Counted from the stretch's first letter, positions 3 through 16,804 are shown. The stretch is 64,000 bases of DNA from an uncultured Victivallales bacterium (GCA_964472315.1 CAYYJS010000013.1:229-64228); one strand, 5' to 3'. Notes: a model not told the origin generated them from the sequence alone. A program made the numbers and translations.

Positions 3-290
3 CCCGCCGATGACACCGATTTGGACAACAACCCCGCGCTGGATACCGCGACCAGGGGAAAACTCAAGTGCCAGCGCAAGCGCCTGCGCCTCCTGTTTAC
101 TGATGACCATCTCAAGCAGCTCAAGCGCGTTAAGCTCATCGATGACATACTGGCCTGTACCGAACGTGTCTTGAACCCGGCAGCCCACGGCGGCAATCCT
201 CCTCTCTACGAAAGGGAAGTCGCCGACGCCCTTAGCCTGCTCCAGCAGCTCGATAGCTCGCTCATTTGCGCTGGGAGTAGCACGGCATGA
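3..290 (+). CDS. 3' portion of an unknown protein whose 5' end lies outside the window; its stop overlaps the ATG of the downstream ABC ATPase (ATGA)
   Basis: Open frame runs from the window edge to a stop at 288-290 (…NPAAHGGNPPLYEREVADALSLLQQLDSSLICAGSSTA*). The 4-nt ATGA overlap with the next gene suggests translational coupling. No family recognised. Confidence 0.35.
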   Translation, partial: PADDTDLDNNPALDTATRGKLKCQRKRLRLLFTDDHLKQLKRVKLIDDILACTERVLNPAAHGGNPPLYEREVADALSLLQQLDSSLICAGSSTA

Positions 291-2599
291 TCACTCGCAT
301 TCTCGAGATTCGCGGCGTCGGATCGCTGAAGAACGTGCGTCCCGACAAGGGGCATGAGTGCTCTTTTGCCCGTCATACGGTTGTGTACGCTCCGAACGCG
401 ACGGGGAAGACCACCCTTGCTGCCGTTTTGAAGGCGTATGGCTTCGATGATCCTGTTCTGATCGGTTCACGCACGACACTCTCAGGGGGAGCGACACCTT
501 TTGCCATCATCGAACTCGACGGCAGGGCGCGCCGCTTCCAGAACGGATCTTGGTATGGGCGCCAGGATGCGGAGTATCCATTCGCAGTGTTCGACCATGC
601 ATTCATCGAAGACAACGTCTTCGCCAGCGAGGTTACGCCAGACCATTTGAAGTCGATCCATCGCATTGTCATCGGGACAACCGGCAAGGCGCTCAACGAT
701 ACCCTTGAGCGATGTAAGCAGGCCGAAAAGGAGGTCCGTCGCGACTTTCAGGCACTTCAGAAGGACCTGGGCAACCTTCAAACGACCACAGGGCGGCAAG
801 ACTATCTTGACCTGCCTCGATCACTCACACGCACCGACGCCGAAGCACGCACAAATGAGTACGCGGGACGGTTGAAAGCGTTGAAGGATGTCGCCGCTGT
901 CGCGACTTTGGCGGTGCCCTCGCTGCAACCGCTGCGGCTCGGGGATTTCGCCGCCTTGAGAAGGGTGGCAACCGCCAGCGTGGCGGTTGTGCATGCCGAT
1001 GCAAAAGAGCGGGTGAAACAGCGCATACAGACGGTGCTCAGGGCAGATCGGGAAGCCGAATCCTTCCTCAACATCGGCCATAGGTTGCGCCCTCCTGACG
1101 GTCAGTGCCCATTCTGCGGTCAGAATACGAAGCCGGTCGTGCGTCTTCTCGACGACTATGAGAAGTGCTTCGACAAATCGTTCGCGGAACTGAAGGACAA
1201 TGTCACTGAGCGGGTAAAGAGGTTCGCGGAATGGTCCCCGGCGAAGGACCTGCAGGCATGGATGGCGACGGCAGCGAACGCTGCAACCCTGCGTGAAAAA
1301 TGGGTCGGGCTGATATCAGACCTACCACCGCTGCCGGACGTGGGTGCTTTCATCGAAGAAGCGGCGGCGACGGCGGTTGCTCATCACGCCAAGGCGCGCG
1401 AGGAGTTGGAGAAGAAGACGCTATCGCTGGATGCGAAACCGGATTTGGCTCATCTCGACGATCTGGAGGGTCTGCTTCGGCGTGTCAGGGCAGAGACGGA
1501 ACGATGTGTGCAAGCGTGCGAGCAAATCGGAGCACGGATCGCGGAATTCCGTCAGAAGTTGAAGCAAAGCAATGCTGAAGATACGGAACGTGAGTTGGCT
1601 CGCCGCCGAGCAATCGTTGAGGGATTGAGCCCGCCCGCGGACATCTGGCGAAAGCGATTTCGGGAAGCGGAAGCTCTTCTGACTGCAAGGGAGAAAGAGA
1701 GAGAGTCGGCGGAAAAGGTTCTGGAAGCCTACTGTCGCGAAACCTATGCGGAATTCCAGAACGGAGTAAACCACTTCCTAAGTGGTTTCGATCTCCGGCT
1801 TACTGTAAGCGGCCTTGAGCCCCGCTCAACGAAGCAGAGCAACCAGGTTCTTGCGGATATTTCGTTCGGCGTGGATGGTTGCGCAGTTTCGGCGTCCAAA
1901 CGGCAAAGCAACGATCCGTGCTTCAAGAACACCCTGAGCGAAGGAGAGAAAAGCGCCCTTGCCTTTGCGTTTTTCCTCGCGGACCTGCGACGGAGGGACG
2001 ACCTTTCCAACGCCATTGTCATTCTCGACGATCCTCTGTCGAGTTTCGATGACGGGCGCAGAGAGGAGACAGCCAATATTCTCGCCCGTCTGTCGGAGAA
2101 GTGCCGGCAAGTGATCGTGCTCACGCACAGGACCGATTTTGTCGTCCGGCTATTTGAGCAGCCATCGTTTGACGGCAGGTTTCTGCGGCTTGCCGCAGAC
2201 GCGGCGCAGGGTGTCCGGATCGAACCACTGGACGTTAAGGATCTGCAGCAACAGCCCCATGAGAAGAACGTCCGAGCTCTTGTCAGCTTCGCCGAGACTG
2301 GCGTACCACCCGCCCGCGACAACCTCCCTCGCCTGGTCCGCTGCGTTCTCGAATTCGCGCTGGCGGCCAAGTACCTCGTCCGACTTCATAGGGGCGAGCG
2401 TGACTTGACAGCAATGCACAATCGGCTGCGGGCAGATGGCTTGCTCGGCCAGGAAGTCGATGCGGAACTGACGTATCTCAACAGCCGATCACAAGAGGGT
2501 CTCCATGCCGCAACAAGCCACGACCCAACGCATGCCCTTTCAGACACTGAATACCGGCGACTTGCCAAGCGTACACTCGATCTCCTCGAAAAGATCTGA
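287..2599 (+). CDS. RloC/PrrC-like (AAA_13-type) ABC ATPase with a Rad50-like zinc hook; probable defence ATPase, possibly anticodon-nuclease-like
   Basis: 770 aa. The N-terminus carries a Walker A motif (YAPNATGKTT). The central region is a long coiled coil with CPFCGQ (a CxxC zinc hook). The C-terminal half has an ABC signature-like LSEGEKSALAFAFFLA and a Walker B/D-loop IVILDDPLSSFDD, followed by a ~200 aa extra domain. This architecture matches RloC-type proteins. Confidence 0.6.
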   Translation: MITRILEIRGVGSLKNVRPDKGHECSFARHTVVYAPNATGKTTLAAVLKAYGFDDPVLIGSRTTLSGGATPFAIIELDGRARRFQNGSWYGRQDAEYPFAVFDHAFIEDNVFASEVTPDHLKSIHRIVIGTTGKALNDTLERCKQAEKEVRRDFQALQKDLGNLQTTTGRQDYLDLPRSLTRTDAEARTNEYAGRLKALKDVAAVATLAVPSLQPLRLGDFAALRRVATASVAVVHADAKERVKQRIQTVLRADREAESFLNIGHRLRPPDGQCPFCGQNTKPVVRLLDDYEKCFDKSFAELKDNVTERVKRFAEWSPAKDLQAWMATAANAATLREKWVGLISDLPPLPDVGAFIEEAAATAVAHHAKAREELEKKTLSLDAKPDLAHLDDLEGLLRRVRAETERCVQACEQIGARIAEFRQKLKQSNAEDTERELARRRAIVEGLSPPADIWRKRFREAEALLTAREKERESAEKVLEAYCRETYAEFQNGVNHFLSGFDLRLTVSGLEPRSTKQSNQVLADISFGVDGCAVSASKRQSNDPCFKNTLSEGEKSALAFAFFLADLRRRDDLSNAIVILDDPLSSFDDGRREETANILARLSEKCRQVIVLTHRTDFVVRLFEQPSFDGRFLRLAADAAQGVRIEPLDVKDLQQQPHEKNVRALVSFAETGVPPARDNLPRLVRCVLEFALAAKYLVRLHRGERDLTAMHNRLRADGLLGQEVDAELTYLNSRSQEGLHAATSHDPTHALSDTEYRRLAKRTLDLLEKI

Positions 2600-2662: not shown

Positions 2663-2854
2663 ATGGACGTCAACAAACTGATGCTCAGCCGGATATTCGA
2701 CAGCACCGAGCGGCTCGATGCACCGCTTTTCCAGCGACCCTACGTGTGGAGCGAGAACCGAAACTGGGACCCGTTGTGGGAAGCGATTGAGTCGCTGGCG
2801 CAGAAACGCGTCGCCGGCAATCTGGGGGTGTCTGGGAGTCACGCGGAGGGTTGA
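2663..2854 (+). pseudogene. Truncated DUF262 (GmrSD N-terminal, ParB-like) fragment
   Basis: The 63-aa ORF contains the DUF262 hallmark LFQRPYVW, paralogous to the N-terminus of the full GmrSD gene at 3236 (LFQRSYSW). It has no DGQQR motif or downstream domains and looks like a remnant. Confidence 0.5.
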
Positions 2855-3040
2855 TGGGAATTCATGTCACAGCTCGGTTGGCCTGGCACAATGACGGGTG
2901 GAACGGGCGGGTTTGCCATGACCCGCCGGGCAACACGTAATGCGTAGGCTGCTACTCATACCCAGGGCTGATGATCGCCGAGCGGCGGGACCTGGCGAAG
3001 GAGACGGCGGCGGCCGGGGTGTCTATGGCGGAACTGGACT

Positions 3041-3089
3041 TCGTGCCGCCCTGCATCCCGCTGGGGTGAATGCAACGCCGGGGCCTGTC
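3041..3089. repeat. 49-bp direct repeat, copy 1 (pairs with 7808-7856; one mismatch)
   Basis: tcgtgccgccctgcatcccgctggggtgaatgcaacgccggggcc[t/c]gtc is present at both positions. The two copies fall in different reading frames, so the repeat is not conserved as coding sequence. Confidence 0.8.
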
Positions 3090-3235
3090 TCTTGCGGCAG
3101 CACGGGCGGCCGTTCTCGCGAAGGGATCTTCCCGGAGGCCGAATCTGTGGTACGGAGGCGATTTGTCGATCGGGGATTACGTGAAGATCCGAGCAGGAAG
3201 AGACTTAGTAGTCGAGAGAGGAACCGAGTAGCGAT

Positions 3236-5878
3236 ATGGACGCGAGAGCAAGAACAGTAAGCGAGATTCTGCACGAAGCGGCGCAGTACATGGTGCCACT
3301 TTTCCAGCGGTCGTACTCCTGGCACAAGGCGCACTGGCAGCGACTGAACGACGACGTGATCGCGCTGGCCGACGACCCTGAGCGCCAGGTTCATTTTCTG
3401 GGACCGCTGGTCTGCACGATCGGTAAGAGCGTGCCCGGATGCCTGCCGGCGTACCAGTTGATCGACGGACAGCAGCGGCTGACGACGCTGACGGTTGCCC
3501 TGGCGGCTATCCGCGACGTGGCACGCGACCGCGGCCTGACTGAACTCGCCGAGGAGATCACCGAGGACTACCTGGTCCACAAACGCAAACAGGACCTTGA
3601 GCGATTCAAAGTGCTGCCCAGGATCGGGGATCGGGACGCGCTGAAGGCGATCATCGAAAATAGCAACCTGGCTCCGTTCGGCCATCTGAGGCTTGTTCAC
3701 GCCTGGCGGTTCTTCCGTCGCCAGTTTTTACACCGCGCGCGGCGGAATCCGCGCGCCGAGCTCCAGAACCTGTTCGACACGATAACGCGGCGGCTGTCGC
3801 TCGTCGTCATTACGATCGACGGGGAGAACCCCTACGAGATCTTCGAGAGCCTGAATGCCACGGGGCTGCCGTTGGCCGAGTCCGATCTCATCCGCAACCA
3901 TGTCTTCATGCAGATTCCCGTTGCCGAGCAGGATGCCTTCGACCGCTCGTACTGGCAGCCGCTGGAGTGGCACTTCATGTCGTGGGGCGATGACCGCCCG
4001 GCGGTGATGACTGACTTCTACCGCGAATACCTGATGCGGGATGGGCGCTATTCGCGTGAGAAGAGCACGTTCGTCGGCTTCAAGCAGCAGCAGAAAGACC
4101 GCGGCCTCAACGCCAGGCAGCAGGCGGAGGAACTCCAACACTACGCCCCGCTGGCAGTGCAGATTCGCAGGCCGGAGACGTGTGCGTCTCCCGTGATCAG
4201 TCGTCGCCTCTCCGAGGTTTCGATGATGGACATCGGGACAGCCCAGGCTTTCGTGATGCACCTACTGGACCGCCATAGCCGCAGTCAACTGAGCGAGCAG
4301 GATCTTTCGACGTGCCTGTGCGATCTGGTGTCGTTCGTCCTGCGGCGCACTGTCTACGGTGACTCCACCCGTGCATACGGCCGGTGGTTCATTGAGGCCA
4401 TCGCCGTGGCCGGCGACACTCCTGTTTCGAACCTGCGACGCTACTGGATGGAACGGGGCTGGCCCGATGATACGGCCTTCACGCATGCCTTGGGAGAGTT
4501 CCAGATCTATAAACGCGAACCCCGCAAGGCCCGTATGGTGCTGGAGGCATTGGAGCTTGCATCCCAGCATAAGGAACAGGTGCCGCTGGAGTCCCTCACC
4601 ATCGAACACGTAATGCCGCAAACCGTCACGGATGACGAGGCGGGAAAGGCGTGGAAGACGGCGTTGGGCGAAAGCTGGGATGATCTCCACGAACGGTACT
4701 TGCATGCACTTGGCAACCTGACGCTGACGGGCTACAACCCAGAGCTTGGCAAGATGGCTTTCCGGAACAAGCAGGAGGTTTACCGCGATAGTCATGTCGG
4801 ATTGAACCAGCGCTTCCGCGACCTGACCACATGGGATTCGGAGTCCATCCGGAATCGGACTACCGCCCTGGCCGCCCAGTTGTGCCGGATCTGGCCGCGA
4901 CCGGATTCTGGCATTCCCTATTCCGCGAGCCAGGATGATTTGACGGGGCAGCAGGCATCTCCAGCTCGCAAGCGGAATCTCGAATACTGGGGGGCACTCC
5001 TGAAACAATGGCCCGAACGGCTGGGCACGCCACCCGCGCCCTCGAATTCAGCCGAACTGGTCATCCCGCTGGATAAGGAGAAGGGCGTTTCCGTCAGCCT
5101 GTGGCAATTCCGACGGGAGCGGAAGGTGGTTGTCTATGTCCGTTTCGAGGGTCGGCTCGGGCGGCGCATCTACGGGCGGCTGCACGAGATCGCGAAGGAG
5201 ATTGACGACAGAATCGAGGGCGAGCTTGTCTGGGATTGGCCCGTCAGGAGCAGTTTCGCGGTCTGCGAGGACGACGTGGACTTTTCGGACCGGAACGACT
5301 GGGAAATTCAGCACGCCTGGTTCATCGAGGAGCTGTCCGATATTATCGAAGCGCTCACCTCCGAAATCGAACAGGTGGCCGAGGCTGAAGAAGGCGATGG
5401 CGGGGCAGATATTCCGGATGAAGCGACCGCGGAACGGCAGCGACTGCGATACCAGTTCTGGACCGGGCTTCTCGGCTATGCGGCGACGAAGACAGACCTT
5501 CACGCCACCCGAAAACCGGGCAAGTTCAACTGGATCGGCGGAGGCATTGGCCGTAGGGGGTTCGGCCTCAACTACAGTGTCCGTGAGTACGAATCGCAGG
5601 TTGAACTCTACATTGACCTGGGCAAGGGGTGCGAGGGGGAGAATGAGCGTGCGTTTGGCGCGCTTAAGAAGGAGCAGACGGTCGCGGAAGCGGTCTTTGG
5701 CGGTCCGTTGGACTGGCAGGATCTGCGAGACAGCCGTGCCTGCCGAATCTGCAAAGTGATCCCGGGCGGTTGGAGATCGGCGCCGGAAACGTGGAGTGAG
5801 ACGCATGCGACCATGGTCGATGCGATGATTCGCCTGGATCGGGCGCTTCGGCCCTATGTGCAGGGCATGCGCCTGTAA
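3236..5878 (+). CDS. GmrSD-family type IV (modification-dependent) restriction endonuclease: DUF262 + DUF1524 with a C-terminal extension
   Basis: 880 aa. The N-terminus has LFQRSYSW and LIDGQQRLTTL (DUF262, ParB/Srx fold). The mid-to-C-terminal region has LTIEHVMPQ and a His-Me finger-like region (DUF1524). The C-terminal ~300 aa resemble a DUF4268-like tail. Confidence 0.75.
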   Translation: MDARARTVSEILHEAAQYMVPLFQRSYSWHKAHWQRLNDDVIALADDPERQVHFLGPLVCTIGKSVPGCLPAYQLIDGQQRLTTLTVALAAIRDVARDRGLTELAEEITEDYLVHKRKQDLERFKVLPRIGDRDALKAIIENSNLAPFGHLRLVHAWRFFRRQFLHRARRNPRAELQNLFDTITRRLSLVVITIDGENPYEIFESLNATGLPLAESDLIRNHVFMQIPVAEQDAFDRSYWQPLEWHFMSWGDDRPAVMTDFYREYLMRDGRYSREKSTFVGFKQQQKDRGLNARQQAEELQHYAPLAVQIRRPETCASPVISRRLSEVSMMDIGTAQAFVMHLLDRHSRSQLSEQDLSTCLCDLVSFVLRRTVYGDSTRAYGRWFIEAIAVAGDTPVSNLRRYWMERGWPDDTAFTHALGEFQIYKREPRKARMVLEALELASQHKEQVPLESLTIEHVMPQTVTDDEAGKAWKTALGESWDDLHERYLHALGNLTLTGYNPELGKMAFRNKQEVYRDSHVGLNQRFRDLTTWDSESIRNRTTALAAQLCRIWPRPDSGIPYSASQDDLTGQQASPARKRNLEYWGALLKQWPERLGTPPAPSNSAELVIPLDKEKGVSVSLWQFRRERKVVVYVRFEGRLGRRIYGRLHEIAKEIDDRIEGELVWDWPVRSSFAVCEDDVDFSDRNDWEIQHAWFIEELSDIIEALTSEIEQVAEAEEGDGGADIPDEATAERQRLRYQFWTGLLGYAATKTDLHATRKPGKFNWIGGGIGRRGFGLNYSVREYESQVELYIDLGKGCEGENERAFGALKKEQTVAEAVFGGPLDWQDLRDSRACRICKVIPGGWRSAPETWSETHATMVDAMIRLDRALRPYVQGMRL

Positions 5879-6123
5879 TGTTCTCAGCCGCCATCTGCAA
5901 GAAGGGAAGTGCGCCGCCGGGGCATGTCCCTTGTCTGGCCCCAACGTCGTCGTGGAAAGAAGGGACAGGCCACGTGAGCGGGCGCGGGGCGTGCCGGGGG
6001 ATCCACGGGCGTCAAGGGCCATCAGGGCATGGTTTCGCCTATGGGTTGCGAACGGTGGTGATGCAAGGCGTTGATGAGCAGGATATTGCGGGGGCATCGG
6101 GGGGCATCGGGGTCAGCAGAATC

Positions 6124-6163
6124 GAGTATTGATGAAGTGGTTGACGCTGTCCGGCGTCATGGG
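6124..6163. repeat. 40-bp direct repeat, copy 1 (pairs with 19839-19878; 2 mismatches), with an internal 6-bp inverted repeat tgacgc-N6-gcgtca
   Basis: gagtattgat[g/a]aagtggtt[g/a]acgctgtccggcgtcatggg occurs at both sites. Weaker similarity extends about 25 bp upstream (…catcgg[g/a]gtca…). Confidence 0.75.
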
Positions 6164-6489
6164 GGTTCCACTCCACATGGACTCTGAGGATATTGATTGT
6201 CTATGGGGACAGTAAGCGGTCATGGAGGCGGCCAGGCCCCCGCAATCGAGGCCTGGATCCAGAAACACGGATGGCACGATACACTGCGAAGCCGCCTGAC
6301 CAAGGTCGGCTTTACGCCGCCTGAGTGTCAAAGGTTTCGCAACGCGCATCACGCGCCGGATGATGAATCAACCCACTTGCGTGAGAAGACGGAATGAGCG
6401 AAGCGAAGCACACGGTGGCACAGCATCTTTGACGCCGAACTTCCCGAGCGCAGGACAACGAAGGCCGTGCTGTCGAGACAATTGCACTC

Positions 6490-7836
6490 ATGGCCTACGG
6501 GTCGATCGTTTCCGTGCCCGGGCGGGAGATCGCCGACGCCGTCGACAGAGTCGTTGATAGGGATACGCCCTTCCCGGTCGAGTACGCCCGAAGCAGCAAA
6601 CGTCGAACCTGGGCTCCAACAGTCGTCGAGGTACCCGAGGGCTACGGCTCCCCAGTCAAAGCCAAGGTGTTTGTCCTCAAGGAGCACGTGACGGAGCAGC
6701 AGGCCCTCGACATGCTCTACAGGCGGGAGATCAACATGGTGGGCGATGCGACCGTGACTTACGACGATGCCCGGCAGAGGAAGAAACGGGACGGTGTCGT
6801 AATTGACAGCCGCAAGGGGTTGGGGGTTGGCAACGTCCTGTACACGACACTCCGGGCCAATATGCCGGAGATCCTCGACAACAGAATTTCCATCGAAGAC
6901 AAGGGACGCCTGTTGGCCGACAAAGCTCGCGCGAGCCTGACTGAAGAGGAATACCGCAGACGGCGGGACGGCATTCAGTATCTTGCAGATAACATCGACC
7001 AAGGAATCATTACTCCTCTGACCACCCCGTACTGTCAGGCAATCCTGTCTGCCATCCCCGGGTCTGGCAATCTGCGGTCAGCGAGGCTGAGGCTGGCGTC
7101 TGAGAGGCTGGGAGTCCGTATTGTCGCCGGCGTCGACGGCTGCAAGGCTGGCTGGTTCGCAGTCTGGGGCGACGGCGCCGAGAACTGGACGTTCGGCGTG
7201 TTTTCAGACTTCGCATCCCTTTGGCAGGAGCTCGCCTACGCCGACCTCATCGTTGTCGATATCCCGATCGGGCTGCCCTCCGATAGCCCCCGAACTTGCG
7301 ATCTGGTGGCGAGGAAGCTCCTGAGAAGGCCTCGGCACTCCAGCGTCTTCCCGGTGCCATGCAGGCAGGCCGTACACGCCTCTTCCGAGGACGAAGCCAA
7401 GGCCGCGAACAAGCGGATCATGGGCAAGAGCATTAGCAGGCAGTGCTTGGGAATCTGCAGCAAGATCGCCGAGGTCGATCGTTTGTTGCTGTCGGACACG
7501 GAGGCACGACAAACCATCAGGGAGGGGCATCCTGAGGTCTCCTTTTATGCCTTTGCAGGTAGTAGACCCATGGAGCACAAGAAATCGATTGCCGAGGGCG
7601 TTGGGGAAAGATTGGCAGTACTGCGTGAGAGATGGTCGAGCATTGACGACCTGTTCAAGAAGGCATCGAAGGAGTGTCGCCGCGGGCATATGGAAAATGA
7701 CGACGTCTTGGACGCGGCGGCCATGTACCTGACGGCGGCGGCGGAAGAGTCCAGGGCGATCCCAACAAAGCGGGAGAGGGATTCGGAGGGGCTGGCGATG
7801 GAAATGGTCGTGCCGCCCTGCATCCCGCTGGGGTGA
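6490..7836 (+). CDS. DUF429 (RNase H-like fold) domain protein with a ~200-aa uncharacterised N-terminal domain
   Basis: 448 aa. The C-terminal half has VAGVDGCKAGWFAVW…LIVVDIPIGLP…CDLVARKLL, typical of DUF429. I do not recognise the N-terminal half. The last codons overlap 49-bp repeat copy 2. Confidence 0.55.
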   Translation: MAYGSIVSVPGREIADAVDRVVDRDTPFPVEYARSSKRRTWAPTVVEVPEGYGSPVKAKVFVLKEHVTEQQALDMLYRREINMVGDATVTYDDARQRKKRDGVVIDSRKGLGVGNVLYTTLRANMPEILDNRISIEDKGRLLADKARASLTEEEYRRRRDGIQYLADNIDQGIITPLTTPYCQAILSAIPGSGNLRSARLRLASERLGVRIVAGVDGCKAGWFAVWGDGAENWTFGVFSDFASLWQELAYADLIVVDIPIGLPSDSPRTCDLVARKLLRRPRHSSVFPVPCRQAVHASSEDEAKAANKRIMGKSISRQCLGICSKIAEVDRLLLSDTEARQTIREGHPEVSFYAFAGSRPMEHKKSIAEGVGERLAVLRERWSSIDDLFKKASKECRRGHMENDDVLDAAAMYLTAAAEESRAIPTKRERDSEGLAMEMVVPPCIPLG

Positions 7837-7856
7837 ATGCAACGCCGGGGCCCGTC
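7808..7856. repeat. 49-bp direct repeat, copy 2
   Basis: See copy 1 at 3041-3089. Confidence 0.8.
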
Positions 7857-7871
7857 CCCCCCGCGCTAGGT

Positions 7872-7913
7872 AGTTGACAACAGTTGACAACTGTCGCTTC
7901 GGTTCGCTAACAT
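7872..7913 (+). promoter_or_regulatory. Candidate sigma70-type promoter with operator for the XRE/ImmA operon
   Basis: A tandem 10-bp repeat agttgacaac agttgacaac supplies two TTGACA boxes (7874-7879 and 7884-7889). A perfect palindrome acagttg-a-caactgt lies at 7880-7894. An 18-nt spacer leads to TAACAT (7908-7913), about 55 nt upstream of the XRE gene start. Confidence 0.4.
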
Positions 7914-7967
7914 ACCAACATCAATGACAGAAGCGGGATCACTCCCGCGAAACGGGTGTGGGTGCGT

Positions 7968-9104
7968 ATGATCAAGTCTCTCAATCTTCCAGCTATCACT
8001 GACACGTTGCCACGTGTCGGCCTGAGTGCGGCTGATCTCGCCAGAGAACTCGGCGTCAGCCGGGAAGCAGTCTCGAAGTGGCTCAACGGGAAGTCCACGC
8101 CAAAGCCGGACAAACTGCTCCGGTTAGGCATGCTGCTCGGACTTTCGTTCGACGAATTGACGATACCGGAAGTCAAATCGGCCGTCCCCATTGTGTCATT
8201 CCGGCGTAAGGGTGGGCGCATCACCCGAGACCGTCATCTCGACAAGGCCCGAGATACCGGGGAACTCTTGAGACGTCTGGTGCGGCACCTACCGGAACAG
8301 GGCTTGGCGGCGCCTCCCGTCCTTAGAGATCCTCGGTGCGACTACGACTATGTCCAGAAAGCGGCGGCTGAAACACGACACGAAATGGGCATAAAAGACG
8401 CTGACATGATCGAATACGCCCAACTTATTCAGAAATTCGGTCGGCTCCATGCCATCATTGTCCCTGTACTATGGGGGGAGCGACAGTACCATGGCAACGC
8501 ACTCAACATTCACCTTCCTGATTGCGGGATCACATGGATCTACCTCAACCTGGACAGCAATGCGATCGACTTCAAATTCTGGATGGCGCACGAACTCGGC
8601 CACGCACTTGCCCCGAAGCTAAGCGGGGAAGAGGGCGAGGATTTCGCCGACATGTTTGCGCAGGCACTCCTGTACCCGGAGGCCGTTGCCGCGGAACTAC
8701 GCACTCAACTGGCACGCCGAACGAATGTCGGCCAGCGCATCAATGCTGTCAAGAGCACCGCAAGAGAGCGCCGTATTTCACCAGTCACAATCCGGTACGC
8801 GATCAAGGCCTACGAGGCAGCCCGAGGCCTGGCCCCCCTGGAGTTGGGAGCCGAGGCGTCTTTCATGGGTGCCGCGAGGAACGTCTCCAAGGAGTACGAA
8901 ACGGTAACCGAAACGCTGTTCACGGAGAATCCGCCATCGCCAGCAGACTATGCGGCCATTGGGCGGCGAACCTTCGATAGCCAGTTTTTTGAATCACTGG
9001 CTGCCTATTGCCGCAACGAGGACGGAGCGGAGCATTTCATCCACAGCGTTCTTGACCTGCCGTTAGCCGACGCAAAAGCCCTTGCGGCGGAGCTCGCAAG
9101 ATGA
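7968..9104 (+). CDS. XRE-family HTH fused to an ImmA/IrrE-family (COG2856) zinc metallopeptidase
   Basis: N-terminal HTH (LSAADLARELGVSREAVSKWLNGKSTP). C-terminal HEXXH motif (FWMAHELGHAL). The first ATG in frame is at 7968 (MIKSLNL); the ORF could also start at GTG 7956. Confidence 0.7.
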   Translation: MIKSLNLPAITDTLPRVGLSAADLARELGVSREAVSKWLNGKSTPKPDKLLRLGMLLGLSFDELTIPEVKSAVPIVSFRRKGGRITRDRHLDKARDTGELLRRLVRHLPEQGLAAPPVLRDPRCDYDYVQKAAAETRHEMGIKDADMIEYAQLIQKFGRLHAIIVPVLWGERQYHGNALNIHLPDCGITWIYLNLDSNAIDFKFWMAHELGHALAPKLSGEEGEDFADMFAQALLYPEAVAAELRTQLARRTNVGQRINAVKSTARERRISPVTIRYAIKAYEAARGLAPLELGAEASFMGAARNVSKEYETVTETLFTENPPSPADYAAIGRRTFDSQFFESLAAYCRNEDGAEHFIHSVLDLPLADAKALAAELAR

Positions 9105-9685
9105 GCGGTGGGCCGAAGGTCATCTTGCTCGACAGCAACGCCTATTTCCGCCTCGCTCAGTCCATTCGGCCTTTGCTCAAACCGCGGTATGGCCCACCGC
9201 CGTCGTATTCGCTTCTTGTCCTGAAGGAGCTCGATCAGGAATACCTTCGCAGTGCCCGCCTCCGAAGCAGATTCAACTGGTTCAGCGGCAGAGAATATGT
9301 CAGCGATCGCGAGAAGAACCGCTATACGGTGAGTGGTGCGGGCGCACGACTGGTCGATATCGCGTTCTCCTATCTGGCGAGGCAGGCCGATAGCGAGGGC
9401 CTGAATCTTGCTCGCGAGGACATCCAGGCGCTTGCTGTTGGCCACGCGCGTGGATTTCCTGTCGTCACGGATGACAGGGGCATGCAGAGGCTGGCCGGAA
9501 TATTCGGCATCGAGTGCTGGTCGACGTTGGCGCTCTTGAAGCACATGGTCGATCATGGGCGCATCGATTTCAACATCGTCCGCCAAGTAGTCGAGTATTG
9601 GCACGCAGAGCAGGACCTGCCTTGGCCTTTGAACGAACTTCGCCGGCGTTACAAGGAGTTCTTCTCGGAGGACTGTCCCATATAG
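9101..9685 (+). CDS. PIN-like domain protein (DUF4411-like), the usual partner of ImmA/IrrE-HTH proteins
   Basis: 194 aa. VILLDSNAYFRL at the N-terminus and PVVTDD resemble PIN acidic motifs. The ATGA overlap with the upstream peptidase gene suggests translational coupling. The ImmA-DUF4411 gene pairing is a known conserved neighbourhood. Confidence 0.5.
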   Translation: MSGGPKVILLDSNAYFRLAQSIRPLLKPRYGPPPSYSLLVLKELDQEYLRSARLRSRFNWFSGREYVSDREKNRYTVSGAGARLVDIAFSYLARQADSEGLNLAREDIQALAVGHARGFPVVTDDRGMQRLAGIFGIECWSTLALLKHMVDHGRIDFNIVRQVVEYWHAEQDLPWPLNELRRRYKEFFSEDCPI

Positions 9686-9720
9686 GCCCGCTCGATGCCG
9701 CTACACGGATACCTCACACC

Positions 9721-10524
9721 ATGAACGCACTTGAACGGGCATCGATTGCGAAAGCGGGGCGTGACCACGGGTGGGAGTGCGTGCTGCGCAACGGTGAGCA
9801 TGGCGTCATCCTGGGGTCATCCCGGCATGACGGCGAAGCCACGATCGAGGCGAGCACCCCGGCGGGAGCCTGGTCATGCCTGTTCAACAACGGCCTTGCC
9901 ATGGCGGAGCTGCGCCGTTCGTTCCCGGACGCCGCCCGCGCTGACGGCACATTCGTCCTCGGCGCCATGGGAGCGCTCACCGTCCTTCTCCGGCGTGCGG
10001 CGGAGTTGCACATGTCCCTGCCCAACGCGGCGGCCCGGCGATACGCGAAGTGCGTCAAAGAAGGGGAGCATGTCGAAGGAACGAACGATCTGGCATTCTC
10101 GCAGGTCGGCGATGTGGCCGAAGCCGTACGCCGAAAGACGCTGGTTTTCGACTGGCTGGTACAGAACGAAGACCGAATTCTTGGCGAGCGAGGTGGCAAC
10201 GTCAATGTCCTCTGGGTTGCCGGCGAGAACTCGGTGTTCGTGATCGATCACAATCTCGCATTCGACACGGCTTTCAATGTCGCTTCATGGAAGGCGCAGC
10301 ACGTGTTCCGCAATGATCTCGATGCATGGGATGCCGGGTTCGCCCTTGCATTGGAGCCGTTGCTGAAGGATACTCAGTTGCGGCTGGACGAGTACTGGGG
10401 AGAGTTGCCGGATGAATGGGTTGATGTGGCTTCGCTGCTCCCTGAGTTCTCGCTGGCAAGGCTGCACGCTGTGCTGGCACGATTTGCTGGAGCGAATAGC
10501 CTGTTTGGCATGGTGACAAAATGA
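9721..10524 (+). CDS. HipA-like (HipA_C / PI3K-PI4K-like) kinase-fold protein
   Basis: 267 aa. FDWLVQNEDRILGERGGNVNVLW parallels the HipA catalytic loop (VLIGNTDDHLKNF). VFVIDHNLAFD parallels the HipA activation/DFG-like motif. I see no N-terminal HipA domains. Confidence 0.4.
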   Translation: MNALERASIAKAGRDHGWECVLRNGEHGVILGSSRHDGEATIEASTPAGAWSCLFNNGLAMAELRRSFPDAARADGTFVLGAMGALTVLLRRAAELHMSLPNAAARRYAKCVKEGEHVEGTNDLAFSQVGDVAEAVRRKTLVFDWLVQNEDRILGERGGNVNVLWVAGENSVFVIDHNLAFDTAFNVASWKAQHVFRNDLDAWDAGFALALEPLLKDTQLRLDEYWGELPDEWVDVASLLPEFSLARLHAVLARFAGANSLFGMVTK

Positions 10525-11366
10525 AGAGCAACTACGCCTGCAATTTTGCGGTTGTGAGATTTCTGCCATACCCCGAGACGGATGAATTCGTCAATATCGG
10601 CATTGTCATGGCGTGCCCGCAAACGGGCATCTTCGACTTCAAGATCGACACTCGGCGTCGGGAGCGCATCACGGGATTCTTTCCTGAACTCGATGTTGAT
10701 ACACTCTTGGATGGTCGGAAGGCTTTCGTGCGCGAAGTGGCGCGTGTGAAGGCTGCATTCGACGGGCAAGCGACGCCGGATCAGCGAAGCTTCAACTTCA
10801 GCCAGCGGGAATGCGTCGATATATTCCGGAAACTGGTGAAGCCGCGTGAAAGCGTCTTTCGGTTCAGCGCCATCGGAACGGTGCTCACCATGGACCCGAA
10901 GCAGAAGCTGCAGGAGCTGTTCGCATACTACGTGGAGCGCCAATTCGCGCAGCGTGAGGAGTACCAGGAGACAGTCATGACTCGCCGGCTTGCGACTGTG
11001 TTCAAGGCGGAACACTTGATCGACCTGTACCACGAGCAGCGTTTCGGCGATGAACTATACCATGTGACGCTGCCGTTCGTTCACGAGGTGGACGACGCTG
11101 CGGTCAAGGCGATCAAACCCCTCGACCTCGACAAACATGATTCAACCCGGATCATTGAATATGGCGACAAATGGCAACGCCGTATCGAGCGCCTCCGTGG
11201 CATGGGGGACTTCCCCAAGCGGATTCTGTTTGTCGTGCGCCAGCCCGGAAGTGGCCGCAAGCGAGAGGCAGCGGAAAGCGTGCGTCGTGATCTTGAAGCC
11301 CTTCACGCCGAGACGCTCAACGAGCGCGATAAGGCTGAGGTGGTCGCATTCGCCCGGGCCGGATAG
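10521..11366 (+). CDS. DUF3037-like protein
   Basis: 281 aa. The N-terminus CNFAVVRFLPYPETDEFVNIGIVM matches my recollection of the DUF3037 consensus. Its ATGA overlaps the upstream kinase-like gene. Confidence 0.4.
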   Translation: MKSNYACNFAVVRFLPYPETDEFVNIGIVMACPQTGIFDFKIDTRRRERITGFFPELDVDTLLDGRKAFVREVARVKAAFDGQATPDQRSFNFSQRECVDIFRKLVKPRESVFRFSAIGTVLTMDPKQKLQELFAYYVERQFAQREEYQETVMTRRLATVFKAEHLIDLYHEQRFGDELYHVTLPFVHEVDDAAVKAIKPLDLDKHDSTRIIEYGDKWQRRIERLRGMGDFPKRILFVVRQPGSGRKREAAESVRRDLEALHAETLNERDKAEVVAFARAG

Positions 11367-11442: not shown

Positions 11443-11537
11443 AGGGAGCCAAGGGCCAGGCCATCTGAGCGCGATGGGCCGGGGTGCATGTCCCCTCCCC
11501 GTAGCCTCCGTCGCCAGGCGGTGGACTCCCCACATGG
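11443..11537. repeat. 95-bp direct repeat, copy A (pairs with 17592-17686; one mismatch)
   Basis: agggagccaagggccaggccatctgagcgcgatgggccggggtgcatgtcccctccccgtagcctccgtcgccag[g/a]cggtggactccccacatgg is present at both positions. The pair brackets the helicase module. Confidence 0.85.
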
Positions 11538-11581: not shown

Positions 11582-14500
11582 ATGAGTGATACAGCCACAG
11601 ATCCCATTTCAGACTGCGTCCGGCTGGATCTGGAGACCAACCAGTCTGGGGGGATTCTCAAAATCGGTGCCGTCCGTGGCAATCGGACTTTCCTGCGTAC
11701 GGGCCGCTTTGACCAGAAGGCTGCGCTGGCTGAGCTGGATGGTCTGTGTCGGGGAGCATCTTGCGTGGTCGGCCATAATGTTGTGCTTCATGACTTGGAA
11801 GTCCTCAGGGAGCACAGCGCTTCGCTTTCGCTTCTGAGGCTGCCGGTAATCGATACGCTGTTCCTGTCGCCGATCTGCTTCCCGGAGAACCCATATCATC
11901 ACCTGGTCAAGGACTACAAACTAGTCTCGGACTCTGTGAACGATCCCGTCGCGGACGCACGGCTTTCCGGCGTCTTGCTCGCGGATGAGGTGCAGTCGCT
12001 GCGCGGAAGGGCCGAAGCGGCTCCCGATGTGTTCCGTTGCCTGCAGTTTCTGCTGTGCGCAGAAGGCGGCACCGACAACCTTCTGTCTGTGGGTATGCAG
12101 TTGGTGTTTGGCGCAGCCGGTGGAGGCGACTCGGTCACGACACAGCAAGGGCGCCCGTTGCTCACGTCAGTCCTAGGGGATCTGGCCTGTCGAACCGGCG
12201 CGGCATACCTGGCGGAAACCGACTTTGGCTCCGCGCAATCGCGTTGGGCACTGGCGTATGTGCTGTCGTGGCTGCGCGTCGCCGGCGCCGATTCCGTACT
12301 GCCGCCCTGGGTACGTCTGCACAACCCGCTGGTGAGCCCGATCCTTTCGCGACTGCGCGATGTCCCGTGTGACAGTCCCGAGTGCACGTACTGCCGTGCG
12401 ACTCACGATCCCGAGGCCCAACTGTCACGTTTTTTCGGATTCGACAGCTTCCGCCCCACTCCGCCGGATGCAAACGGCCAGAGTCTTCAGCGCGGCATTG
12501 TCTTGGCGGGCATGCGAAATGAGTCCGTGCTGGCCATCATGCCCACCGGCGGAGGGAAATCACTCTGCTTCCAGCTTCCCGCCCTGGTGCGCAACTTACG
12601 CAGAGGGCAGCTCACCATCGTCGTGTCTCCCCTGCAGGCGCTCATGAAGGATCAGGTCGATGGCCTTGTGCGCCGGACCCACATGCACAACGCAGCGGCG
12701 CTTTACGGGTTGCTGACTTCACCCGAACGAGGGGAGGTCCTGCGCGGCGTGCGAACCGGGAGCATTGCGCTCCTTTACGTTTCGCCAGAACAACTGCGCG
12801 GGAAGTCGTTCAGGAATGCCGTGCTTCAGCGAGAGATCGGCTGCTGGGTTCTGGATGAGGCGCACTGTCTGTCCAAATGGGGACACGACTTTCGTCCTGA
12901 CTACCTGTACGTAGGCCGGTTCATCCGCGAATTGGCGAAAGAGCAGGCAGGCGCCCTGCCGGCAATCGCCTGCTTCACGGCAACTGCGAAGCGGGATGTC
13001 ATCGACGAAATCGTCGAGTTCTTCCGCCGCGAGACCGGCACGGAACTGATTCGCTATGAAGGCGGCGTCGAGCGCGACAACCTGCATTTCGAGGTACAGA
13101 CTGTGGGTGCGCATGCGAAGTTGCCGCGGATGCATGATCTTCTGAGTGCCCGACTGCGGCCCGGCGGCCCTGGAAGCGCAGTCGTATTCCGTGCTACGCG
13201 AAAGGCTGCGGAGGAAACGGCGGAATTCCTCGTTACTAAGGGCTGGTCCGCGGCATGTTTTCATGCCGGACTGCTGGCGACCGACAAGAAGCGCATCCAG
13301 AATGACTTCCTGGCTGGCGAAATCCAGGTCATCTGTGCGACCAACGCTTTCGGGATGGGTATCGACAAGGATGACGTCAGGCTCGTCATCCACGGCGACA
13401 CGCCGGGATCGCTGGAGAACTACCTGCAGGAAGCCGGACGGGCCGGGCGAGACCGGAATCCCGCCGACTGCGTGCTCCTATACGACGAAGAGGATTGCGA
13501 GCAACAATTTCGCATGGGTGCTCACTCCGAGCTGAGCCGCCGCGATATCGCCCAGATCCTTCGCGGTCTCCGCAAGGCCGCCCGGTCGCGGAAAACCGAT
13601 GAAGTCGTCATCACAACCGGTGAGTTGCTGCGCGATGAAGACGTCGATACTGAATTTGGTCCCCAAGACAATTCAGCGGACACCAAGGTGCGGGCCGCCG
13701 TCTCATGGCTGGAGCGTGCAGGATTTGTCGAACGGAACGAGAACCGGACCAACGTCGTGCAGGCCCGACTGCTCGTCAAGAGTATCGACGAGGCCCGGGC
13801 GCAGTTGGCGAGGCTCAACTTGTCCGAACGGGAGGGCGGCCTGTGGTTAGCGATCATACGCGAGATGATGAACGCCTCCGAGATGGATACGCTATCCGTC
13901 GACGAGATTGCCCTGTTGCCCGAGTTCCAGTCCTACTTGGAGGAAGCCCGTTCCGGTGCGCCGGAGCGGCTGGTACGGGAAGGGCGCAGCCAGGAGTATC
14001 TGAGCGCGAAGGTGCTGAAAGTCCTCGACGCGATGATGGGTGTGGGCGTGCTCAAGAAGGATACGCTGCTGACAGCGTACGTGCGGTATAAGGTCGCGGA
14101 TCATTCTGGGATCAGACTGGACCGCGTGCTCGGCGTGGATCGCGAGTTCCTCAAGCTGCTGTCCGAGGAAGAGCCAGATCCGGAGGGGTGGCTCTCGCTC
14201 AACCTCCGTCTCGTGAACGACGAACTGTTGTCGCGAGGGGTTGACTGCTCGCCGGAAATGCTGCGACAGCTCCTGCGGAGCCTGAGCGAGGATGGTCGAG
14301 GGTTCGCGGGCCAAACGGGCAGCATTGACTGCCGCTACGTGGGGCGTGACGCCTACCGCGTCAGGGTTCGAAGGGAATGGCGACAAGCTGAGGCGCTGGC
14401 CGAAGTGAGGAGGAGAGTGGCAACCAAGATCCTGGAAGCCCTCTTGGACACAGTCCCGCCGAATACACCGCCTAAGGGCGACCTCTTGGTTGAGTTCGCG

Positions 14501-16804
14501 TTCGAGACGCTCCGGTCGGCGTTGGAGAGTGACCTGACCCTTCGCTCCGATATTCGTGACATGCAGGCGGCCATCGAGCGCGGGTTGATGTTTCTACATG
14601 AGCAGAGCGTCATCATCCTTCAAAAGGGGCTGGCGATATTCCGCTCTGCCATGACCGTCCGCGTTCTGCCCGAAGGTGACCGCCAACGGTATACGGCAGA
14701 ACACTACGACGCGCTGCAGCACCACTACCGTGAGCGTGTGTTTCAGGTGCATGTGATGAACGAGTACGCCCGTTACGGACTGCAGAAGATCCGCGCAGCT
14801 CTCGAGTTGGTCGTCGCATACTTCACGATGGACAAGGAGTCGTTCATCCGACGGTTCTTCAGTGACAGCGGGGAACTGCTGGAGAGAGCCACGACGGCGC
14901 GGTCCTACCGCGCGATCGTAGACAGCCTGGGAAACCGCGATCAGATCCGCATTGTGACCCAGCCGACTCAGAAAAACATCCTGATCCTGGCCGGACCAGG
15001 CTCAGGGAAGACCCGAACCGTCGTGCACCGGTGTGCGTACCTGTTGCGCGTTAAGCGCGTACGTCCCCGGGCCGTCTTGGTCTGCTGCTTCAACCACAAG
15101 GCCGTCCTGGAGTTGCGCCGACGCCTGGCCGCTTTGGTTGGCAAGGACGCCATCGGGGTTACGATTCAGACCTACCACGGCCTGGCCCTTCGCATCCTCG
15201 GCCTGTCCTGCCGCGGACTGGAGGACAGGAACGGGACCACGCCCGATTTCGACCAGCTCATATCCGACGCTGTACGCGTCCTGCGTGGAGAGTCCGGAGT
15301 GCCGGGTGTCGAGCCGGACGACGTTCGTGACCGCCTGTTGGCCGGCTTTGAGCACATTCTCGTGGACGAGTACCAGGACATCGATGAGCCCCAGTACGAG
15401 ATGATCAGCGCCATAGCCGGCCGTACCCTCAAGGACGGGGAGCGCAAACTGTCCATTCTGGCTGTCGGCGACGACGACCAGAGCATCTACGGTTTTCGGG
15501 GCGCCAACGTGGAATTCATCCGTCGCTTCAAGACGGACTACGAGGCGGATGTTGCCTTCCTGATCGAGAACTACCGTTCCACGCGCCATATCATTGAGGC
15601 GGCCAACCGCTTGATCGGGCGCAATCATGACCGCATGAAGGTGGACAAGGAGATCCGAATCGACCAGGGACGTGGCTTACTCCCGCCGGGCGGGGTGTTC
15701 GGCCAGAAGGACGCCCTTACGCGCGGCCGCGTCACGCTCGTCGAGGTCGGGGACGCTTCGGTGCAGGCGTCAGCCGTCGTGCGCGAGATCAAGCGGCTGC
15801 GCGCCTTGGGCGCAACCCGCTGGGAGGACATCGCCGTCCTCTCGCGCACACGGCGAGACCTTGCCCTGGTGCGCGCCGCAGCGGAAGCCGATGGCATTCC
15901 CGTTTCGTGGCCGCTGGACCGCGGCAAGATACCTCCGCTGAGCCGCATCCGTGAGGTATGGAACGTCCTGTCCGAACTGGCCTCTATTCGCGGCGAATCC
16001 ACCACGGCTTCGGACCTGCTTGTTCGGTTTGGGCTTTCGGACGACTCACCGCCAGCAAATCCCTGGCGGGTGCTCATCCAGGACTGCCTGCATGCGTGGG
16101 CCGACGAGACACTGGACGAAAGACTTCCTGTCGCCACCGCTCTCGAGGGGCTTTACGAGGCGCTGGCCCAGCGACGGCGCGACGAACAGTTCGGCTGCGG
16201 CGTAGTCCTGAACACAGTCCATGCGGCCAAAGGCACGGAATACGAGCATGTCCTGCTCTGCGGCGATTGGTCGGGCGCGCGAGGGGCGGACATTGAGGAG
16301 GAACGCCGTGTTCTTTACGTCGGCATGACCCGTGCCCGCCACACCTTAGCTGTTTTCAACAGGATGGACCGCCGCAATCCCTTTGCCGACGAACTCACCG
16401 GGCCGTGTTTCACCTACCGCCGCGAGTCTGCCGGCCCAGCCGGACGCGACCACGATGCATCGGATTATGTCCTGCTCGGCATGGAAGATATCTTCCTGGA
16501 CTTCGCCGGCCAGCAGCCCGCCGGCCACCCCGTACACACTGCGCTGGCGGGGCTTCAGCCCGGCGACAAACTGGCAGTGTCCCGTAACGGCGCGCGGCCC
16601 GCGTTGCTGAACGCGGACGGGCAGATGCTTGCTCGGTTCTCTGCCAAGGCCGCTGATACGTGGAAGGATCGTCTCGACACGATTCGTGACGTTCAAGTCA
16701 TCTGCAACGTTATTCGACAGCGCACCGACTGCAAAGAGAGCGAATACCAAGACCGGCTCAAAGCGGACAGATGGGAGATCCCGATCTGCGAGATCCGGAT
16801 GTAG
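11582..16804 (+). CDS. Tri-domain protein: N-terminal DnaQ-like DEDDh 3'-5' exonuclease, RecQ-family helicase and UvrD/PcrA-family helicase
   Basis: 1740 aa.
- Exonuclease: RLDLETNQ…VVGHNVVLHDLEVL matches exonuclease motifs I and III.
- RecQ: MPTGGGKSLCFQLPAL and LDEAHCLSKWGHDFRPDY are RecQ signatures.
- UvrD: ILILAGPGSGKTRTVVHR (Walker A), VDEYQDIDEPQYEMI (motif II) and YVGMTRAR (motif VI).
The last ~150 aa are unassigned. Confidence 0.7.
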   Translation: MSDTATDPISDCVRLDLETNQSGGILKIGAVRGNRTFLRTGRFDQKAALAELDGLCRGASCVVGHNVVLHDLEVLREHSASLSLLRLPVIDTLFLSPICFPENPYHHLVKDYKLVSDSVNDPVADARLSGVLLADEVQSLRGRAEAAPDVFRCLQFLLCAEGGTDNLLSVGMQLVFGAAGGGDSVTTQQGRPLLTSVLGDLACRTGAAYLAETDFGSAQSRWALAYVLSWLRVAGADSVLPPWVRLHNPLVSPILSRLRDVPCDSPECTYCRATHDPEAQLSRFFGFDSFRPTPPDANGQSLQRGIVLAGMRNESVLAIMPTGGGKSLCFQLPALVRNLRRGQLTIVVSPLQALMKDQVDGLVRRTHMHNAAALYGLLTSPERGEVLRGVRTGSIALLYVSPEQLRGKSFRNAVLQREIGCWVLDEAHCLSKWGHDFRPDYLYVGRFIRELAKEQAGALPAIACFTATAKRDVIDEIVEFFRRETGTELIRYEGGVERDNLHFEVQTVGAHAKLPRMHDLLSARLRPGGPGSAVVFRATRKAAEETAEFLVTKGWSAACFHAGLLATDKKRIQNDFLAGEIQVICATNAFGMGIDKDDVRLVIHGDTPGSLENYLQEAGRAGRDRNPADCVLLYDEEDCEQQFRMGAHSELSRRDIAQILRGLRKAARSRKTDEVVITTGELLRDEDVDTEFGPQDNSADTKVRAAVSWLERAGFVERNENRTNVVQARLLVKSIDEARAQLARLNLSEREGGLWLAIIREMMNASEMDTLSVDEIALLPEFQSYLEEARSGAPERLVREGRSQEYLSAKVLKVLDAMMGVGVLKKDTLLTAYVRYKVADHSGIRLDRVLGVDREFLKLLSEEEPDPEGWLSLNLRLVNDELLSRGVDCSPEMLRQLLRSLSEDGRGFAGQTGSIDCRYVGRDAYRVRVRREWRQAEALAEVRRRVATKILEALLDTVPPNTPPKGDLLVEFAFETLRSALESDLTLRSDIRDMQAAIERGLMFLHEQSVIILQKGLAIFRSAMTVRVLPEGDRQRYTAEHYDALQHHYRERVFQVHVMNEYARYGLQKIRAALELVVAYFTMDKESFIRRFFSDSGELLERATTARSYRAIVDSLGNRDQIRIVTQPTQKNILILAGPGSGKTRTVVHRCAYLLRVKRVRPRAVLVCCFNHKAVLELRRRLAALVGKDAIGVTIQTYHGLALRILGLSCRGLEDRNGTTPDFDQLISDAVRVLRGESGVPGVEPDDVRDRLLAGFEHILVDEYQDIDEPQYEMISAIAGRTLKDGERKLSILAVGDDDQSIYGFRGANVEFIRRFKTDYEADVAFLIENYRSTRHIIEAANRLIGRNHDRMKVDKEIRIDQGRGLLPPGGVFGQKDALTRGRVTLVEVGDASVQASAVVREIKRLRALGATRWEDIAVLSRTRRDLALVRAAAEADGIPVSWPLDRGKIPPLSRIREVWNVLSELASIRGESTTASDLLVRFGLSDDSPPANPWRVLIQDCLHAWADETLDERLPVATALEGLYEALAQRRRDEQFGCGVVLNTVHAAKGTEYEHVLLCGDWSGARGADIEEERRVLYVGMTRARHTLAVFNRMDRRNPFADELTGPCFTYRRESAGPAGRDHDASDYVLLGMEDIFLDFAGQQPAGHPVHTALAGLQPGDKLAVSRNGARPALLNADGQMLARFSAKAADTWKDRLDTIRDVQVICNVIRQRTDCKESEYQDRLKADRWEIPICEIRM

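Follow-up and report, generated by a model that had tools for sequence, protein, structure and literature searches.

The window analysed here is a stretch of 64,000 nucleotides (nt), read on one strand, from an uncultured Victivallales bacterium (GCA_964472315.1, CAYYJS010000013.1:229-64228), the first 22 kb of which form a defence island reaching up to panD (22316-22834, minus strand). Near the left end of this island two 49-bp direct repeats, at 3041-3089 (copy 1) and 7808-7856 (copy 2), both on the plus strand, bracket a segment of 4,718 bp (3090-7807). The segment consists of a 146-nt leader (3090-3235), a gene for a GmrSD-type Type IV restriction endonuclease fused to DUF4268 (3236-5878, plus strand, 880 aa), a 611-nt spacer (5879-6489) and a gene of 448 aa (6490-7836, plus strand), which combines an N-domain (aa 1-210) with an RNase H-like DUF429 domain (aa 214-429; Pfam DUF429, 4e-53). 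The endonuclease is recognized by three Pfam families (GmrSD_N, 4e-33; GmrSD_C, 2e-24; DUF4268, 8e-32) and by two PADLOC profiles (Orf5, 1e-144; mREase_IV, 8e-23). The original prediction for this locus had reported near-identical 49-mers with one mismatch that enclose exactly the GmrSD and DUF429 genes. The repeats and their coordinates were borne out, with two matches in the window and agreement from read-derived unitigs, and both genes indeed lie inside, together with the leader and the spacer.

The two copies are identical at 48 of 49 positions, that is, 45 contiguous nucleotides, a single mismatch at position 46 (T3086 in copy 1, C7853 in copy 2) and three more identical nucleotides. They are the only matches in the window when up to three mismatches are allowed, and none is expected by chance (100 shuffles). 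The edges of the 49-mer are sharp on both sides. Extension of the homology past the repeat (repeat family D14, gapped blast extension) gave only marginal similarity in the 60 nt upstream of the two copies (p ~0.04, compared with in-frame controls), and no similarity was found in the 60 nt downstream. A third, partial copy 3' of the GmrSD stop codon (5909-5932, 20 of 24 nt identical) was dropped, as chance matches with equal scores occur elsewhere in the window. Both copies are read in the same frame, ending FVPPCIPLG and a stop codon in the upstream reading frame described below and VVPPCIPLG and a stop codon in the DUF429 gene, and not in different frames as had been proposed. The conclusion that the 49-mer is an element at the DNA level holds on other grounds, namely identity that continues for 20 nt beyond the stop codon and the two sharp edges. 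A conserved-peptide or chance origin is ruled out by the same 20 nt, by the 45-nt exact identity and by the expectation of zero chance matches.

The arrangement was also examined in Logan unitigs of run SRR12261224, an independent assembly that is 100% identical to the window; two further runs contain the same unitigs. The unitig breaks fall 30 nt (k-1) into each copy of the 49-mer: unitig L003 ends at 3070, L001 covers 3056-7837 and L002 starts at 7823. Since unitigs cross into both copies from either side, all four repeat/flank junctions exist in the raw reads. The k=31 unitig graph fits a linear insertion as well as a circle of 4,767 bp plus an empty site. The contig could in principle represent a population mixture or an assembly path, in which an empty site (upstream stub, 49-mer, regulator gene of the right flank) and a separate circular or tandem segment of 4.77 kb were threaded into one sequence; a k=31 de Bruijn graph cannot separate these forms, and the unitigs do end exactly at the repeat. 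We regard such a mixture as very improbable. The NCBI contig of 75.8 kb runs through both 49-mers and through both copies of a 95-nt repeat located further right, and short reads normally span a repeat of 49 nt. Moreover, the copies of the 49-mer differ at position 46, and an internal mismatch in the 95-nt pair marks its members as two distinct copies. Even under this scenario, real molecules would still carry the 49-mer at either end of the segment.

A closer inspection of the DNA to the left of the segment revealed where the left part of the repeat comes from. The original prediction had taken copy 1 as plain intergenic sequence; instead, a pseudo-open reading frame (ORF) of 71 codons (2854-3069, plus strand) runs into it. 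This frame has one internal in-frame TAA (2938-2940) and translates as MGIHVTARLAWHNDGWNGRVCHDPPGNT, the internal stop, CVGCYSYPGLMIAERRDLAKETAAAGVSMAELDFVPPCIPLG and the terminal stop, ending with PLG inside copy 1 (stop codon 3067-3069). Its first 68 codons match positions 1-68 of the PADLOC profile PDC-S68, which has 1202 positions (E 1e-28), and 2854-3069 is therefore a 5' stub, left over from a large defence gene. The score is 97.9 bits with the terminal FVPPCIPLG and 88.6 bits without it. Whether read in the original frame or in either frameshifted continuation, the stub aligns with the profile no further than residue 68-69; the idea that PDC-S68 reads on through the repeat in another frame was thus rejected, as neither of the alternative frames raised the score. 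A HMMER scan of 1.84 billion representative proteins with stub residues 30-71 as query retrieved four N-terminal relatives (P0121, P0122, P0123 and P0125), all of which continue with the pattern PPC[MVCI][YF]S[VI]NAF at the place where the window has PPCI followed by PLG and the stop, and the alignments end at or just before I68. A word-indexed protein search with the 71-aa stub gave no match, and a literature search on PDC-S68 found nothing.

The break at residue 68, seen in the profile and in the homologues alike, identifies the 49-mer as a composite. Its first 17 nt (3041-3057, PDC-S68 codons 63-68) are native to the PDC-S68 coding sequence and join the stub without interruption, and the other 32 nt (3058-3089) are unrelated DNA. 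A composite of this kind points to an older deletion or replacement junction that was duplicated later; the 49-mer is an older scar and not a designed site. Copy 1 retains its native left neighbour, the PDC-S68 stub.

The left neighbour of copy 2 is non-native. In most of the 40-odd DUF429 homologues that were inspected, the protein ends with GLPMEMV[YF] and a tail of 2-20 variable residues. Copy 2 in the window takes over at the last conserved DUF429 codon (MEMV, then V) and gives the protein a foreign tail and stop, so that the last 8-9 codons and the stop codon (7834-7836) fall in the repeat and the gene is left without a tail of its own. Because the left 17 nt of the duplicated sequence are the end of a truncated resident gene, this sequence can, in that part at least, be identified as resident without a comparison genome.

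The segment between the copies also differs from its surroundings in composition, with a GC content at third codon positions (GC3) of 0.75-0.76 (0.76 for the GmrSD gene) vs 0.65 and 0.65 in the two flanking genes; it differs as well from the core genes beyond 22.3 kb (0.81-0.90). Its two genes are not supported as a conserved two-gene system, as the closest GmrSD genes and the closest DUF429 genes have other neighbours. Relatives of the GmrSD gene with 73-79% nucleotide identity occur on three contigs in three contexts: beside a giant FG-GAP protein (L007), within a BREX operon (L008) and in a third setting (L009). The homology is confined to window positions 3226-5874, that is, to the gene itself; blastn homology starts at 3226-3236, the leader has no homology to the regions upstream of the closest GmrSD genes, and both DUF429 and the 49-mer are absent from all three contigs. 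The unit that moves is the GmrSD gene by itself. As for DUF429, the closest genes (62% and 59% identity) stand alone, with a length of 250 aa and unrelated neighbours. Adjacency of GmrSD and the N-domain was found once, on L006, there with a GmrSD that is only 21% identical.

Several further details concern these two proteins. In the closest JGI relative (L009, 6762-9407) the endonuclease is split into a GmrSD part of 623 aa and a separate DUF4268 protein of 236 aa, which marks the domain boundary of the fusion in the window. The first 210 residues of the DUF429 protein (window 6490-7125) belong to no Pfam family and match the C-terminal half of two proteins of 434-437 aa (P0010 and P0024); P0024 is encoded directly 3' of the distantly related (21%) GmrSD gene in the BREX island of L006 (5706-9314). 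A PDB search with the DUF429 protein found nothing. The 611-nt spacer is without a recognizable coding relic, and a six-frame Pfam scan of it was empty, as was that of the region at 19.9-20.7 kb.

The original prediction had read the repeats as attL/attR-like attachment sites or as a recombination hotspot used to swap defence cassettes. The 49-mer does not look like such a dedicated site. No integrase or transposase domain was detected in the island ORFs tested (Pfam and PADLOC) or in six-frame scans of the spacers. No inverted repeats occur at the cassette ends, where the scores stay within those of shuffles, and the 49-mer as DNA folds no better than shuffled sequence (z 0.48, 0.81 and -0.12). 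It contains no terminator-like site and, by inspection, no GTTRRRY core on either strand. The repeat is not near a tRNA, the only tRNA in the window being at 47,455, and Rfam gave no family at gathering score across the island, the two sub-threshold matches (21529-21583 and 19806-19867) lying away from both copies of the 49-mer. An exact match to the 23-nt core of the right-hand part, outside PDC-S68, was found neither in GTDB representatives (one genome per species) nor in JGI metagenomes or IMG/VR. A transposon with target-site duplication is not supported, given the lack of inverted ends and of a transposase in the ORFs tested and a length of 49 bp vs the roughly 2-15 bp of such duplications; the statement in the original prediction that the repeats are too long for transposon target-site duplications is supported. 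An integron attC site is not supported either (no imperfect palindrome, no GTTRRRY, no integrase in the ORFs tested), and two copies only in 64 kb without structure speak against a dispersed repeat of the repetitive extragenic palindromic (REP) or miniature inverted-repeat transposable element (MITE) type.

Spelled out, the attachment-site reading takes the copies as attL and attR of a cassette mobilisable in cis, with the gene of the site-specific recombinase located somewhere else in the genome. Many integrase-driven islands are flanked by direct repeats of 16 to more than 100 bp, an ORF ends within the repeat at both sites, and the k=31 graph is compatible with a circle of 4,767 bp plus an empty site. 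The recombinase search covered island ORFs, and about 12 kb of the contig as well as the rest of the genome lie outside it. We nevertheless consider this reading quite unlikely. The site is the composite scar of a pseudogene and not a tRNA or the end of a conserved gene, it shows neither structure nor inverted sub-repeats above chance, and the last gene of the cassette is truncated at the junction. Neither the cassette nor the island ORFs tested encode a recombinase. An attachment core should also recur; here there are two copies only in 64 kb, and the 23-nt core occurs in none of the three public collections. Furthermore, the cargo is not a conserved unit, and the other repeat pairs of the island are unrelated in sequence and length. 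What survives of the earlier interpretation is a DNA-level junction feature around an acquired defence cassette, for which loss and re-integration are possible in principle. A site-specific integrative element, an att pair and a reusable swap hotspot are not supported, given the composite scar, the absence of structure above shuffles and of further copies, the lack of integrase or transposase domains in the ORFs tested and the non-conserved cargo.

A different class of events fits the locus better. Furuta, Abe and Kobayashi (2010, NAR 38:2428, PMC2853133) described restriction genes belonging to types I-IV, among them a solitary Type IV mcrA, that are inserted with target duplications of 45-420 bp. 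Cases from Haemophilus influenzae, Thermus and Xylella have duplications of 45-47 bp, and lengths up to ~420 bp are reached in Helicobacter pylori (PMC2853133), in which insertion with long target duplication was described by the Kobayashi laboratory, as cited in the same paper. These cases have no mobility genes, their repeats are unique in the genome and sometimes lie over the 3' end of a gene, and gene fusions occur at the junctions (PMC2853133). The class was defined by an insert of <20 kb, direct repeats of >30 bp with high identity, no mobility genes, a non-tRNA and unique repeat, and an empty site (PMC2853133). In the window we find restriction cargo, an insert of 4,718 bp, repeats identical at 48 of 49 positions, no mobility genes in the ORFs tested and a repeat that is not a tRNA.

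The resemblance thus extends to a restriction gene (here Type IV), an insert below 20 kb, near-identical direct repeats above 30 bp and the absence of mobility genes, as well as to a repeat over the 3' end of an ORF, a junction gene that is fused or altered and an insert composition unlike that of the flanks. The differences are that membership is argued here from internal evidence only, that the target is an older scar inside a pseudogene, that the insert adds a non-restriction gene and a 40-nt segment common to resident DNA, and that the host is an uncultured bacterium of the Planctomycetota-Verrucomicrobiota-Chlamydiota (PVC) group. Integrase-driven islands and cis-mobilisable elements share with the locus direct repeats of tens of bp, an ORF end in the repeat and a conceivable circle; unlike them, it lacks a recombinase among the ORFs tested, a target in a tRNA or conserved gene and a recurrence of the site in the collections searched, and it has a composite scar and a truncated terminal gene. 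The microcin H47 island, which has no recombinase of its own, excises via flanking direct repeats in Escherichia coli through RecA-independent recombination of the host (Azpiroz and Lavina 2017, PMC5426353). It is likewise small and recombinase-less and bounded by direct repeats able in principle to mediate deletion and circle formation, but the H47 repeats are longer, imperfect and made of several blocks of homology, and excision of the present cassette is a prediction. Integron cassettes, finally, resemble the locus in their tight arrangement of genes in one orientation and in a repeated element at the ORF 3' end; they differ in that the 49-mer has a fold z near 0, no GTTRRRY and no integron integrase, and in that the repeats are copies of the target rather than a cassette-specific attC.

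Our preferred explanation, which we hold with about even confidence, is that the 49-mers are a long target duplication around a 4.7-kb restriction-gene insert that encodes no recombinase of its own. The PDC-S68 gene would first have been truncated after codon 68, making the junction now seen as the 49-mer, and the locus before insertion would have had the order stub, 49-mer, promoter of the XRE-family regulator gene on the right. A 4.7-kb fragment (3090-7807) would then have been joined into the decaying defence island with its two ends attached to target positions 49 bp from each other. Staggered breaks or a pair of sister duplexes could account for this, and repair synthesis would have copied the 49 bp twice. 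The incoming fragment presumably comprised the leader, the GmrSD-DUF4268 gene, the spacer and the N-domain-DUF429 gene without its last few codons. The DUF429 gene, cut at these codons, would now read into copy 2 for its tail and stop. The 45 bp of perfect direct identity could serve as a handle for host recombination or replication slippage, and a deletion of this kind would be precise, restoring the old junction and releasing a circle of 4,767 bp; amplification of the cassette would be the other possible outcome.

The search for close relatives bears on how far this history can be followed. Nine of the ten proteins tested are present in the protein collection, each alone in its 90% cluster except for one AbiEii variant from Logan, and the tenth is absent from the collection; the similarity of the AbiEii variant to the window does not reach past the gene (87% nucleotide identity). 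For a core carbamoyltransferase, the best relatives come from metagenome-assembled genomes of Verrucomicrobiota, Kiritimatiellia and Lentisphaerae and reach 74% amino acid identity, with synteny of at most one small gene. The AAA_13 protein of the left flank has no relative in JGI metagenomes. Compared with plasmids and phages, the region has nothing at ~70% identity or above, apart from an irrelevant 68-nt match to DUF262. Singleton proteins and core relatives at 74% without synteny indicate an uncultured PVC-group bacterium that is without close relatives in the data.

A whole-window self-comparison (64 kb) returned only three significant repeat pairs, all direct and all within the first 20 kb. 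The first is the 49-mer. The second, D1, is a 95-nt direct repeat with one mismatch (D1a at 11443-11537, D1b at 17592-17686, plus strand), and the third, D2, is a 40-nt direct repeat with two mismatches (plus strand), of which D2a (6124-6163) lies in the spacer of the GmrSD-DUF429 insert and D2b (19839-19878) in the AbiEi upstream region. Both mismatches of D2 are synonymous in the minus-strand frame MTPDSVNHFINT, and a palindrome, TGACGC-N4-GCGTCA, lies within the repeat (fold z -2.9). The D2 and 49-mer pairs interleave; with R for the 49-mer, the order is R, D2, R, D1, D1, D2.

This order is one of several points that weigh against a long target duplication. The insert carries D2a, whose partner in resident DNA, located 12 kb further right, is 95% identical to it, and a simple insertion of wholly foreign DNA predicts no such interleaving. 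The explanation also needs the right 32 nt to have adjoined originally the XRE promoter and not the GmrSD leader, which we infer. The counts of repeat copies cover the 64-kb window, with ~12 kb of the source contig and the remaining genome outside it. The empty site that defines the class (one copy in a related genome) has no comparison genome, the proteins being singletons and the core relatives 74% identical. Finally, the mechanism of long target duplication itself is still open in the literature.

The same order leads to an alternative in which copy 2 is a templated patch. The 49-mer and the GmrSD leader would already have been contiguous, PDC-S68 having been truncated by the arrival of the GmrSD segment, and, when the truncated DUF429 gene was later joined to the XRE block, 49 nt would have been copied into the new junction from 4.7 kb upstream through a template switch in the course of break repair or replication. 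Similar junction fillers would explain the 95-nt and 40-nt duplicates. This would agree with three repeat pairs in 64 kb that are all short, sharp, direct and at or near boundaries of gene blocks of different origin, and with the non-native junction to the left of copy 2; the order R, D2, R, D1, D1, D2, awkward for simple insertions, is unconstrained under it. On the other hand, templated fillers of 40-95 nt are, to our knowledge, not an established outcome of bacterial end joining. The 49-nt and 95-nt pairs both bracket tight gene cassettes, as target duplication predicts, and an origin of the 32-nt right part in the GmrSD leader has nothing in its favour, as the homology of the closest GmrSD loci does not extend upstream of 3226. 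A templated patch therefore appears unlikely to us.

The D1 pair itself appears to record a second event of the long-target-duplication class, in this case with non-restriction cargo. The DNA that it tightly encloses holds the gene of a RecQ+UvrD helicase of 1740 aa (11582-16804) along with two small ORFs, and extends from 44 nt before the ATG of the helicase gene to 19 nt past the last stop codon of the cassette. As with the 49-mer, no inverted ends and no fold were found, and the core of the 95-mer has no match in viral contigs. Immediately to the right, a 74-codon ORF (17683-17907, plus strand) begins in the last bases of the 95-mer; it resembles the SoFic-like_C winged-helix of the Fic family with E 0.037 only and may be a 3' gene stub.

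Under the long target duplication the locus represents a known kind of event, cleanly exemplified here in an uncultured and distant lineage of the PVC group. It combines a junction gene repaired by reading into the duplicated target with a probable second case, 3.6 kb away, that has non-restriction cargo. Defence islands turn over quickly and many of their cassettes have no visible means of moving; for restriction genes, insertions with long target duplication have been catalogued since 2000. If confirmed, the 45-bp identity would provide a simple one-step route for the loss or amplification of a restriction gene. A broader and rather doubtful possibility is that the island holds at least two recombinase-free cassettes in long resident duplications (49 bp around the Type IV restriction gene, 95 bp around the RecQ/UvrD-type helicase) and that these reflect a general process of island growth, perhaps triggered by breaks, with units that the host could drop or amplify. 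If true, long target duplication would not be peculiar to restriction-modification genes, chromosome breaks made by incoming nucleases might trigger insertions, and cassettes could turn over without an integrase.

The rest of the island contains an AAA_13/PDC-S06 ATPase, a block of XRE-M78, orf194, HipA_2 and DUF3037 genes, the RecQ+UvrD helicase and AbiEii/AbiEi. Its genes have a GC3 of 0.65-0.80 vs 0.81-0.90 in the core genes beyond panD (window 1-22300 vs 22300-64000). The window begins inside the island; unitig L003 reaches 203 nt further left, and the left border lies outside the window. Between 19879 and 20709 there are 830 nt without an intact gene, with fragments reminiscent of a nucleotidyltransferase/antitoxin pair (including EVQYLLIGGYAVG), in which Pfam found nothing.

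On the left flank, a 770-aa ATPase of the AAA_13/PDC-S06 type (287-2599, plus strand; Pfam AAA_13, 2e-29; PADLOC PDC-S06, 1e-58; GC3 0.65) is followed by two 5' stubs head-to-tail (2663-3069), first DUF262/GmrSD_N and then PDC-S68. The first of these comprises ~44 codons (2663-2795, plus strand, in an ORF that extends to 2854) with Pfam GmrSD_N at 6e-6, an FQRPYVWS motif and a supporting Logan annotation, residues 9-44 of the protein matching positions 2-37 of the 199 in the GmrSD_N profile. Two stacked 5' stubs indicate that genes at that spot were overwritten repeatedly from the right.

The right flank (7857-9104, plus strand) consists of a promoter-like site (-35 at 7884, -10 at 7908) and the gene of an XRE helix-turn-helix (HTH)/M78 regulator (7968-9104, GC3 0.65). 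The latter opens a tight block of four co-oriented genes (7968-11366) with at least two stop/start overlaps, which encode the XRE-HTH regulator with its M78 peptidase domain, a 194-aa protein without a family, a HipA_2 kinase and a DUF3037 protein; HipA_2 and DUF3037 match the PADLOC candidate system PDC-M66. In the promoter region (7872-7913) a tandem duplication of AGTTGACAAC overlaps the -35 element TTGACA, with the -10 element TAACAT 18 nt downstream, and this region, located 28 nt past copy 2, is likely the autoregulated operator/promoter of the XRE-M78 gene.

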